From Oscillospiraceae bacterium (GTDB lineage Bacteria > Bacillota > Clostridia > Oscillospirales > JAGBHD01), in NCBI GenBank assembly GCA_018110785.1, contig JAGBHD010000030.1, positions 1 through 62,969 on the forward strand: a DNA stretch of 62,969 nt, in the 5' to 3' direction. Positions 5,744 through 38,008 of the stretch are shown here, one piece after another. A program made the position numbers and the translations under genes. Each line of letters begins with the position of its first letter. Position 1 is the first letter of the stretch. Below the pieces are notes generated by a model, which was not told the DNA's origin, did no database searches, and saw only the letters and a list, made by a program, of their open reading frames with translations.

Positions 5744-5820
5744 GAGGGTATAGCTCAGTTGGTCAGAGTACTTGCTTGACATGCAAGGGGTCGTTGGTTC
5801 AAGTCCAACTATCCTCACCA
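5744..5820 (+). tRNA. tRNA-Val (anticodon GAC)
   Basis: Hand-folded cloverleaf. Acceptor GAGGGTA/TATCCTC, D arm GCTC..GAGT, anticodon stem CTTGC/GCAAG with loop TTGACAT, T arm GTTGG-TTCAAGT-CCAAC, encoded CCA. Confidence 0.9.
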
Positions 5821-5862: not shown

Positions 5863-5920
5863 ATGTTGGACTTGAAGCTAATTTCAACTATTATTTTACC
5901 TTAAAATATTTAAAAATAAA

Positions 5921-5960
5921 ATAGTGAAAAATAGTGAAAAAATAATGTAAAAATAGTGGA
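5921..5960. repeat. four tandem 10-bp units (ATAGTGAAAA x2, AATAATGTAA, AAATAGTGGA) upstream of the Fic promoter
   Basis: Direct reading. There are two exact copies and two degenerate copies in 10-bp register. They end about 20 bp upstream of an extended -10 (TGGTATAAT at 5977-5985). Confidence 0.7.
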
Positions 5961-36432: not shown

Positions 36433-36466
36433 AAAAATTGCTCTCCGTTTGGGGAGCAATTTTTTT
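36433..36466 (+). terminator. intrinsic terminator of rpsB-tsf
   Basis: ATTGCTCTCC-GTTT-GGGGAGCAAT followed by T6. Confidence 0.8.
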
Positions 36467-36477
36467 ATATAGGATTA

Positions 36478-36699
36478 AGTTTTATAGCAAACTAACGTTT
36501 GCAGTTGTATTTTTGCCTAAAGGCAAAAGTTATATTGAAACCACAAAGTTTCAGTGTTATTTTATCCTACGGTAAAACTTGCGAAGCAAATAACACTTGG
36601 CAAAAGCCAAATATCACTACGAAGTAATATAACTCGCCGATAGGCGAATAAAACTGTGGACATTTCAAAATAAATCTCCACACACTGTGAGGTTTTTTA
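36478..36699 (+). repeat. box-plus-mini-hairpin array forming a predicted ladder of nested junctions (unknown element; possible ornate ncRNA)
   Basis: The 9-nt box AGTKNTATW starts at 36478, 36503, 36528 and 36553, an exact 25-nt period. Its reverse complement AATANMACT starts at 36589, 36610, 36626 and 36647. Each gap holds a different perfect 4-6 bp hairpin. The box pairs 36553-61/36589-97 and 36528-36/36626-34 are 9/9 complementary, and 36503-11/36647-55 is 8/9. The segment ends with a hairpin plus T6 at 36677-36699. No ORF. Confidence 0.8.
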
Positions 36700-36759
36700 T
36701 AATAAATTCGTCTAATTAAGTGAAAGGGTTAAAAACAACTTTCAGAAAGGAGAGGGACA

Positions 36760-37308
36760 ATGGATAACGGTGCAAGTAGCTACCGCCGTTTTCTTGATGG
36801 CGACGACAGCGGATTTGTCCAACTCATTAAGGATTATAAAGACGGACTTATTCTATATCTGAACGGAATCGTAGGGAATATTCATACCGCAGAAGAGCTT
36901 ACAGAGGATACTTTTTTTAAAGTAATAACAAAAAAACCTAAATTTCGGGGAAAATCCTCCTTTAAAACATGGCTTTATGCTATAGGAAGAAATGTTGCAA
37001 TTGATTACCTAAGACGCTCCTCAAAGGCATCTATGGTATATCTTGACGACGGTATTGCTGATGAGATAGATTTAGAAGAAAGCTATATAAAAGAGGAAAG
37101 AAAAATTATTATTCACAGGGCGCTTTCGAAGCTTTCTCCTGATTACAGACAGGTTTTATGGCTTGTTTACTTTGAAGAATTTACAAATAAGGAAGCCGCG
37201 GCTGTTATGAAAAAGAGCGTTCATAATATAGAAACTCTCCTTTACAGAGCAAGGCAGAAAATGAAAAAAGAACTTGAGAAAGAGGGATTTGTTTATGAAG
37301 AACTATAG
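36760..37308 (+). CDS. ECF-type RNA polymerase sigma-70 family factor
   Basis: 182 aa. Region 2 (FKTWLYAIGRNVAIDYLRR) and region 4 (FTNKEAAAVMKKSVHNIETLLYRARQKM). RBS AAAGGAGAGGG. Confidence 0.88.
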   Translation: MDNGASSYRRFLDGDDSGFVQLIKDYKDGLILYLNGIVGNIHTAEELTEDTFFKVITKKPKFRGKSSFKTWLYAIGRNVAIDYLRRSSKASMVYLDDGIADEIDLEESYIKEERKIIIHRALSKLSPDYRQVLWLVYFEEFTNKEAAAVMKKSVHNIETLLYRARQKMKKELEKEGFVYEEL

Positions 37309-38008
37309 CGAAATGGCGAATGATATTTTTAGGCGCAGAGATGAATACGAAATAAAGCTCAATAAAAAGAGAAAGGTTATAAAACGGGCGGCGGTATCGG
37401 CGGGAAGTTTTTGTGTTGCTGTTGTCTTAGGTTTTTATGTAGCCGAAAGCGGACTTTTAAGTAAATCTACGGGGACTGATTTAGAAGATGCCGTGTACCC
37501 TGGGACACAGGATTATTTTGATGAGTCGAACAAAATTGTTATAAGCCCTATGGAGGGTGTTTCCGACGGAAGAATGGATGTAGCGCGTTTTCGTGAAGAT
37601 TTTATCCGAATGGAAAAGGAAGAGCTAAATAAATACTATGGCACAAATGTTTTCCCCGAAGTTCCTGAGGATTTGAAAGAGTGGGGACAGGTTTATGGAA
37701 TATATAGGCGAGAGGGCGGCAAGGGAGAGCTTTATTGTGACAGAAATCAGATAACCTATGATAATGGCGATATATCAAGGTCACTTAATGTTTCTGTTGA
37801 AACGGCGGGTGTTCCTGCAAATACTCCTGTTTTTTATGATAAGATACCCGAAAAATCAGTCATAAACGGAATTTCGGTTGCAATCGCCAAAAGCAAAAGA
37901 GGAAATCTTTACAGTGAATTCACCTACAAAAACACCTGCTTTTTTATCTTTGCAACGGGGTTTTCAGATGAAGAATTTGTTTCGGTTATAAAATCTTTGA
38001 TAAAATAA
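37295..38008 (+). CDS. single-pass membrane protein, probable cognate anti-sigma factor
   Basis: It overlaps the sigma gene by 14 nt. A short cytoplasmic N-terminus, one TM helix (AAVSAGSFCVAVVLGFYVA) and an extracytoplasmic domain. The role is inferred from context only. Confidence 0.55.
   Translation: MKNYSEMANDIFRRRDEYEIKLNKKRKVIKRAAVSAGSFCVAVVLGFYVAESGLLSKSTGTDLEDAVYPGTQDYFDESNKIVISPMEGVSDGRMDVARFREDFIRMEKEELNKYYGTNVFPEVPEDLKEWGQVYGIYRREGGKGELYCDRNQITYDNGDISRSLNVSVETAGVPANTPVFYDKIPEKSVINGISVAIAKSKRGNLYSEFTYKNTCFFIFATGFSDEEFVSVIKSLIK

Follow-up and report, generated by a model that had tools for sequence, protein, structure and literature searches.

We analysed a 62,969-nt stretch of DNA from an Oscillospiraceae bacterium (contig JAGBHD010000030.1 of assembly GCA_018110785.1, positions 1-62,969 of the plus strand; hereafter, the window), in which the spacer between tsf and a sigma factor gene of the extracytoplasmic function (ECF) type carries an array of short boxes and small hairpins. 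Our preferred reading, which we hold with moderate confidence, is that positions 36470-36683 are a solo, insertion-polymorphic repeat of the Gut-1 family (Rfam RF01706) that would work in single-stranded form, its boxes being read by a trans-acting protein.

The closest homologue of the window sigma gene (93% identical) lies on a sister contig, L321, where the gene order rpsB-tsf-sigma-antisigma-DUF711 is the same and 124 nt separate tsf from sigma, compared with 339 nt in the window. Alignment of the two loci (alignment A4) revealed near-identical flanks and a block, window positions 36470-36683 (214 nt), that is exactly absent from L321. The missing block extends from 2 nt outside P0, the terminal hairpin, to 8 nt past the last box of the element. 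As far as aligned sequences can tell, this shows that the element comes and goes as a unit, that is, as a presence/absence polymorphism. Since the element is absent from L321, we take it to be an insertion/deletion unit and not a leader of the sigma gene. A sequence-only reading of the window had proposed a leader or non-coding RNA controlling the sigma gene, and this proposal found no support: the 93%-identical locus has the same synteny without the 214 nt and keeps the promoter-like block in front of the sigma gene, the relatives of the element lie by unrelated genes and not beside sigma genes, and a 72%-identical sigma homologue is accompanied by another box family. Neither a target-site duplication nor a terminal inverted repeat was present at the exact junctions in alignment A4, so we also rejected a miniature inverted-repeat transposable element of the cut-and-paste type.

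In the window, four forward boxes (AGTTTTATA at 36478, AGTTGTATT at 36503, AGTTATATT at 36528 and AGTGTTATT at 36553) recur with a 25-nt period, each followed by a perfect 16-nt hairpin whose stem is different every time. The box reappears as its reverse complement at 36589, 36610, 36626 and 36647, with hairpins of 12, 7 and 12 nt between the copies. Box 36553-61 is complementary to 36589-97 at 9/9 positions (10/10 with one flanking base), 36528-36 to 36626-34 at 9/9, and 36478-85 to 36648-55 at 8/8. The eight boxes in two inverted sets, the perfect and mutually unrelated mini-hairpins and the inverted, nested box pairs described in the sequence-only reading are indeed there. Its view that the arrangement lies far beyond chance was also borne out. 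A pattern of two boxes plus their spacing occurred three times in the window, always in the element, against 0.18 expected occurrences; the folding energy of the element had z-scores of -5.5 (plus strand) and -6.2 (minus strand), with 0 out of 200 shuffles folding as well. Box matches in the 63-kb window numbered 17, eight of them inside a 178-nt part of the element.

The module of the element is a conserved 9-nt box (of the AAUAUCACU / AGUGAUAUU type; in the window, the degenerate AGTKNTATW) plus a short hairpin, and selection acts on the pairing of the hairpin and not on its sequence. The element sets four such modules against four in the opposite orientation and has P0 at one end; one array is bracketed by P1, a match of 9-12 bp that joins box 1 to the centre. 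P0 directly adjoins box 1 in every relative; the window version folds with only -7.9 kcal/mol. The parts of the element and its immediate flanks are as follows.

36470-36683, minus strand: whole inserted unit, 214 nt, precisely absent from sister contig L321 (alignment A4)
36656-36681, minus strand: P0, terminal hairpin GUGGAGAUUU..AAAUGUCCAC, weak and AU-rich in the window
36580-36655, minus strand: array 1 ("B half"), the portion matched by Rfam Gut-1
36647-55, 36626-34, 36610-18 and 36589-97, minus strand: boxes of array 1
36635-46, 36619-25, 36598-609 and 36580-88, minus strand: hairpins of array 1
36562-36579, minus strand: central segment, whose 3' part can pair with box 1 plus one base (P1)
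36478-36561, plus strand: array 2 ("R half" of the minus strand; the forward set of the sequence-only reading)
36478, 36503, 36528 and 36553, plus strand: boxes of array 2
36487-502, 36512-27 and 36537-52, plus strand: 16-nt hairpins of array 2
36535-36563, plus strand: promoter-like site inside the element (TTGAAA, 17 nt, TG-n-TATTTT), directed toward the sigma gene; a consensus match only
36433-36464, no strand assigned: tsf terminator (A-run, stem, T-run), part of the flank and not of the element; could work in both directions
36684-36726, plus strand: ACTGTGAGGTTTT..CGTCTAATTAAGTGAAAGG, a conserved block of the flank in front of the sigma gene, immediately adjoining the inserted element

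The promoter-like site occupies the same place in loci L184 and L318 and was not found in L316 or L136. We rejected the idea of a central bidirectional promoter, since only some members keep the site and a member of the GUGAAAU type keeps P1 without it. The first 6 nt of the insert, TAGGAT (36470-36475), are complementary to the central ATCCTA (36564-36569); on the plus strand, this pairing would close the other array in the manner of P1. The relatives checked, L184 and L174, did not show it, and it may be due to chance.

A permissive Rfam scan returned one strong match in the element, to the Gut-1 RNA motif (RF01706), whose full model (1-77 of 77) aligned to 36585-36656 of the minus strand (48.9 bits, E = 6e-9). 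The window copy does not reach the gathering score of 50 bits and is absent from a scan at the gathering threshold; relatives of the same architecture exceed it, with 59.1 bits for L313, 58.4 for L174 and 56.6 for L121. The RF01706 consensus consists of three hairpins with GUGAAAU linkers between them, and the window shows the corresponding linkers, AGUUUUAUU, AGUUAUAUU, AGUGAUAUU and AGUGUUAUU, separated by hairpins of 12, 7 and 12 nt. Architecture and covariance-model similarity together show, as far as such comparisons go, that the window element is a member of the Gut-1 family. It is not undescribed, as the sequence-only reading had it, and belongs to a motif on record since 2010. In L290 (46.4 bits) and L136 (38.5 bits), the Gut-1 model also matched array 2 on the opposite strand; the element therefore consists of two mirror-image Gut-1-like arrays.

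In the only mention of the motif that we found in the literature, a single line, Weinberg et al. 2010 (PMC2864571) described Gut-1 from human-gut sequences as probably a non-coding RNA and rated it "RNA: Y, cis-regulatory: n". In the supplementary alignment of that study, the sequences flanking the seed carry the inverted half: in most members, inverted AUAUCAC/AUUUCAC boxes with 16-18-nt hairpins come after the motif. The seed set also includes near-identical copies in different flanks within one sample. On seed contig BAAZ01000130 (Weinberg 2010, supplementary file 95), four matches lie at exact 240-nt intervals, so whole Gut-1 units can occur as tandem arrays. Sequences copied by hand from this supplement were used qualitatively and kept outside the pairing, partner and loop statistics.

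Pattern, similarity and gene look-ups yielded 14 loci with relatives of the element. Scanning metagenome contigs for a three-box pattern gave 7 true relatives among 120 loci, most of the others being plain tandem repeats with identical spacers. Among viral contigs, 3 out of 111 matches were true relatives. The phage collection gave one match, an unverified faecal "Bacteriophage sp." record that is itself a Gut-1 seed locus, and a search of the plasmid collection found no copy of the element. Look-ups by a neighbouring gene added three further loci, and three relative loci came from sample 3300029305. All the relatives found share one layout, including the two inverted sets. In the Gut-1 orientation, which corresponds to the minus strand of the window, they have a strong P0, box 1, three to four short hairpins, a central segment ending in GGCGAAUAnAAU, and array 2. 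In their first array, boxes of the AGUGAUAUU type are spaced 21, 16 and 21 nt apart, and their second has four AAUAUCACU boxes at 25-nt spacing with 16-nt hairpins between.

The element thus resembles the published motif in its three to four short, variable hairpins split by a conserved 7-9-nt linker (GUGAAAU / GUGAUAU) and in its occurrence in gut metagenomes with varying gene neighbours. It differs in that the window linker is degenerate (GUKNUAU), with a score under 50 bits; in that it is about three times larger than the 77-nt published model, because of P0, the two mirror-image arrays and the long-range match; and in that it is insertion-polymorphic and usually stands beside a PF05635 gene. 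Two further features lie on the contig of one solo copy, L121: a cobalamin riboswitch (L121:1-148; RF00174, 49 bits) and a tRNA gene 100 nt upstream of the element on the opposite strand. We also came across arrays of the TGATATCA palindrome, at a spacing of about 22 nt and upstream of a gene, on phage contigs of about 55 kb from sample 3300045988 (L217:1760-1890 and about 25 other IMG/VR contigs). These arrays have no hairpins between boxes and look like operators, and we dismissed them as unrelated.

We assessed covariation in a 14-sequence alignment (A3) of locus-derived copies. Compensatory changes affected 2/3 pairs in hairpin hp3, 3/3 in hp4, 3/6 in hpA, 6/6 in hpB and 4/5 in hpC. The hairpin covariation score was 0.184, compared with 0.081 in shuffles, and 0 out of 500 shuffles reached the observed value. 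Relatives retain every hairpin by compensatory change while the stem sequences differ, and the earlier view of a discrete element selected for structure was upheld on this point.

By contrast, the perfect nested ladder of box pairs found no such support. The rungs, each a box paired with an inverted box, failed to pair at the two variable positions in about half of the sequences and were invariant where the boxes themselves are invariant. Boxes 2-4 had no preference for any particular inverted box as partner. The variable dinucleotide of box 1 paired with the centre in 13 out of 14 sequences, compared with 3 out of 13 for its ladder partner. Failed pairing and the absence of partner preference rule out partner-specific covariation of the rungs, and on these alignments the box-box ladder is shown to be without covariation support. 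Forcing the full ladder cost about 4 kcal/mol relative to the minimum free energy (MFE) structure on either strand; the minus-strand MFE structure includes two of the rungs, the outer (8 bp) and the inner (9 bp).

P1 fared better. In the window, it joins GUUUUAUUC (36646-36654) to the minus-strand GGAUAAAAU (plus-strand coordinates 36559-36567). Across the 14 relatives, this 12-bp match was 95% paired, with one variable position appearing as UA in eight sequences, AU in three and CG in two. RNAalifold predicted P1 independently, along with an alternative hairpin into which the released arm is drawn. Kissing loops between UNNC and GNNA loops were considered and rejected, as their complementarity, checked by eye, was not consistent.

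The loops of the hairpins bear on whether the element acts as RNA or DNA, a question on which the sequence features point in conflicting directions. In array 1, 36 out of 56 loops were of the C-UNC/UNNC-G type on the Gut-1 strand (C-GNA/GNNA-G on the other strand, including GCGAAGC), and the reverse was found in 0 out of 56. In array 2, 13 out of 40 loops were of the C-GNA/GNNA-G type on the Gut-1 strand, with 0 out of 40 the other way round. GCGAAGC is a very stable DNA mini-hairpin. GNRA loops were present on the Gut-1 strand in P0 and array 2. In L318 and L316, P0 together with the U-rich box 1 was called as a canonical intrinsic terminator, which faces incoming transcription.

A second, apparently undescribed box-and-hairpin family is present in L322 (ATATCATCA / TGATGATAT; L322:566-800 and L322:1465-1700). 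It obeys the same module rule, with three (G)TATATCATCA boxes followed by three inverted TGATGATAT boxes and different hairpins between them, and its two sets stand in the opposite order to those of the Gut-1 element. The two copies are 900 bp apart, each directly after a terminator (of a tRNA gene and of a DUF218 gene), and one of them lies upstream of the 72% homologue of the window sigma gene. An Rfam search with this box family found no matching family. Taken together, the mirrored loops, the terminator formed by P0 and box 1 and the reversed order in L322 point to the box-plus-hairpin module, and not one long fold, as the functional unit. On the same points, the element resembles repeats of the repetitive extragenic palindromic (REP) and bacterial interspersed mosaic element (BIME) type more than a classical small RNA (sRNA).

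Further investigation of the relatives revealed a recurrent neighbour. Upstream genes of relatives included proC, a tRNA gene, a radical-SAM methyltransferase gene, a hexapeptide-transferase gene, a his-operon gene, an ACT-domain gene (adjoining a phenylacetate-CoA ligase-like gene, named by eye) and a glycosidase gene. Eight loci have a cassette of element, promoter and PF05635 four-helix-bundle gene with differing flanking genes: L184, L090, L105, L136 and L313, found via the element, and L314/315, L316/317 and L318-320, found via PF05635 homologues. All three loci looked up by way of these homologues (3/3) had the element directly upstream of the gene. The cassette gene encodes a 117-aa PF05635 / TIGR02436 four-helix-bundle protein whose nearest solved structure is PDB 2RLD (E = 5e-30). 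In the eight loci, the last box abuts or overlaps the promoter, called as TTGAAA-16/17-TATAAT in L184 and L318 (11/12 matches, with the last box over the -35 element) and as GCGACA-18-TATAAT in L316; at the L136 cassette, no promoter was called. The protein has 6404 close homologues, mostly on very short contigs, a pattern typical of repeats that break assemblies. Profiles of defence systems did not match it. Copies in the window, L121, L174, L168, L290 and L207 are solo. On the 3' side of the PF05635 gene, we noticed a conserved tail of about 60 nt (L184:4351-4415, L314:2945-3010, L318:2873-2935 and, on the reverse strand, L090), with hairpins TTTGGGC-TTA-GCCCAAA and GCATTTGTA-CA-TACAAATGC and a box-like GGTTCTAT at its end; the right end of the cassette may lie at this tail.

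PF05635 resembles Avd of diversity-generating retroelements (DGRs; PMC10053308), and PF05635 open reading frames (ORFs) also occur inside 23S rRNA intervening sequences (bioRxiv 10.1101/2024.02.27.582315). Genes of this family are typically found inside or beside structured, insertion-like nucleic-acid elements, and the same family adjoins most copies of the element described here. Unlike those systems, the loci inspected had no reverse transcriptase or rRNA gene, and the window copy has no PF05635 gene. For PF05635 members outside DGRs, we know of no function.

Other mobile or regulatory elements offer partial parallels. REP/BIME repeats (REPINs) are short extragenic hairpin units in inverted clusters at gene 3' ends of enterobacteria and pseudomonads; the foot of their hairpins carries a short single-stranded motif to which a protein binds. 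Like them, the element consists of extragenic hairpin units in inverted orientations, is polymorphic for presence or absence, as seen against L321, and is dispersed in many contexts. By contrast, no gene of the REP-associated tyrosine transposase (RAYT) type was noticed in the loci inspected, although neither the window nor the genomes were searched systematically for one, and there is no conserved palindromic unit, the stems differing within and between elements. IS200/IS605-type elements transpose as single strands. The element shares with them the lack of target duplication and terminal inverted repeats, hairpin-marked ends, and stable DNA-type loops (C-GNA-G, including GCGAAGC), but has no TnpA or TnpB gene nearby and has eight hairpin modules instead of one subterminal hairpin per end. 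CsrB/RsmZ sponge RNAs likewise show a repeated short motif between or on many small hairpins; unlike them, the element also carries the complement of its motif and is insertion-polymorphic. We know of no protein that binds Gut-1-type boxes.

In the mechanism that we propose for a solo Gut-1 repeat, one 214-bp copy would have entered the DNA between the tsf terminator and the ECF sigma promoter region, or the sister lineage would have lost it precisely. The element would behave like an intergenic repeat of the REP/BIME type, spreading or being lost as a unit. It would fold when single-stranded, either as DNA in replication or transposition or as RNA if transcribed, and a trans-acting protein would recognise the single-stranded box at the foot of a hairpin. 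By its adjacency in the cassettes, the Avd-like PF05635 protein would be the obvious candidate reader, with an HUH/Y1-type enzyme as an alternative. The window copy would be a solo, probably non-autonomous passenger that at most insulates the sigma promoter from tsf read-through. We would extend this proposal only tentatively, to a generalisation that we consider rather unlikely: that Gut-1 and at least one sister family (ATATCATCA / TGATGATAT) form a superfamily of mobile arrays of boxes and variable hairpins in gut Clostridia, acting single-stranded, bound, regulated or propagated by the PF05635 protein of the full-length cassettes, with solo copies such as that of the window as non-autonomous derivatives.

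Several observations weigh against a mobile single-stranded repeat. No transposase, target duplication or terminal inverted repeat was seen, and the polymorphism could reflect precise deletion, not insertion. The link to PF05635 consists of adjacency, and the window has no such gene. True REPs keep the palindrome and vary the linkers, whereas the element keeps the linkers and varies the palindromes. The 63-kb window holds one element. The 14 aligned sequences are not independent, several being close relatives. Finally, P1 covaries as an RNA helix would, and G-U pairs in array 2 favour the Gut-1 strand by roughly 8 to 2; both would suit a long transcript.

Such a transcript is at the heart of the main rival, to which we assign a clearly minor share of probability: a stand-alone structured sRNA of about 200-260 nt, the Gut-1 RNA as in Rfam, predicted on the minus strand and closed by P1. 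It would run from a weak promoter (TTCACT at 36724-36719, 17 nt, TATAAA at 36701-36696) through P0, array 1 and array 2 to the bidirectional tsf terminator, and its boxes would be single-stranded binding sites for protein or RNA, by analogy with CsrB-type sponge RNAs. The RF01706 match and its orientation, the 2010 rating of Gut-1 as an RNA that is not cis-regulatory (PMC2864571), the covariation of P1 with the RNAalifold prediction of P1 and its alternative hairpin, the G-U pairs on the Gut-1 strand in array 2 and the GNRA loops of that strand in P0 and array 2 all argue for it. However, P0 and box 1 form a canonical terminator facing incoming transcription, with no conserved promoter upstream; array 1 has loops of the stable type in 0 out of 56 cases on the Gut-1 strand, compared with 36 out of 56 on the other; the L322 family has its sets in the opposite order; and a sister strain dispenses with the element altogether.

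Less probable still, and in our view unlikely, is an array of double-stranded DNA operators, in which the boxes would bind a protein (e.g., the PF05635 protein) controlling the promoter by the last box: the promoter of the four-helix-bundle gene in cassettes and, here, the sigma promoter block or the internal TTGAAA-17-TATTTT site. This would fit the overlap of the last cassette box with the -35 element of a strong promoter (TTGAAA-16/17-TATAAT, 11/12 matches), the retention of the internal promoter-like site in the window, L184 and L318, and the conservation of the boxes as sequence and not by pairing. Yet compensatory changes in every hairpin between boxes indicate selection on pairing within a strand, which duplex operators do not need. 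Box spacings of 25, 21 and 16 bp also break a single helical phase, solo copies are mostly between convergent genes, and the sister strain retains the sigma promoter block without the element. The model that follows the sequence-only reading itself is a plus-strand RNA of about 200 nt, a ladder of stacked four-way junctions serving as a leader or attenuator of the sigma gene and ending at a hairpin plus T6. Three box pairs in the window are indeed exactly complementary and nested, the ladder comes within about 4 kcal/mol of the MFE, and the internal promoter-like site points toward sigma. The rungs, however, fail at variable positions in about half of the relatives and have no partner specificity, and the GG/CC match of L184 is broken in L314 and L318. 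The hairpin with T6 is the junction of insert and flank, and relatives are not beside sigma genes. The empty site of the sister strain largely refutes this model, which we regard as very improbable.

The surroundings of the element in the window are ordered rpsB, tsf, the tsf terminator, the ECF-type sigma gene, a probable anti-sigma ORF and a DUF711 gene. The T-run of the tsf terminator ends 3 nt before the insertion point. On the other side, the empty site of L321 retains the block ACTGTGAGGTTTT..CGTCTAATTAAGTGAAAGG, which also precedes the 72%-identical sigma gene (L322-L324), and because of this conservation the block is probably the promoter region of the sigma gene itself; it looks like an ECF-type autoregulated promoter. 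Only the window has a perfect TATAAT at 36698-36703, where the sister contig reads CGTAAATAAT. The hairpin plus T6 at 36677-36699 exists as sequence but straddles the end of the insert (36683) and the pre-existing flank; its T-run is flank sequence that is also in the empty site, and as a terminator or feature of the element it did not survive. We likewise rejected a terminator at P0 for a leftward transcript, as the T-run is 9-12 nt from the hairpin, which is non-canonical, and is flank in the window.

Orthologous tsf spacers did not show conservation of the boxes: 0 out of 80 tsf loci of related genomes (Tsf at most 67% identical) had a box array. Four of these related spacers, when read, had an ordinary terminator, followed by pyrH in the two with a readable downstream gene; matches by hairpin density in such spacers were set aside as AT-rich noise or terminators. 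An exact-protein look-up of the window sigma factor returned only an identical contig. A 244-aa ORF at 37274-38008 overlaps the end of the sigma gene; it lacks a Pfam match and presumably encodes the cognate anti-sigma factor. Elsewhere in the window, short tandem repeats (AAAATAGTGAA, 3.8 copies) occupy 5902-5958, just downstream of a tRNA gene (5744-5817).

For the annotation of the window, the spacer between tsf and the sigma gene is to be read as containing an inserted repeat, not a control element dedicated to sigma. Since 2010, Gut-1 has stood as an orphan motif, with a one-line description and a 77-nt RNA model. Our results indicate that the real unit is about 214 nt long, with two mirror-image arrays and a terminal hairpin; that it is gained or lost between close strains and usually travels with a PF05635 (Avd-like) gene; and that its two strands mirror each other in loop chemistry, so that one may ask whether the element is an RNA at all. 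If the superfamily and its link to PF05635 were true, they would provide a function both for an orphan "RNA motif" and for the PF05635 members outside DGRs.

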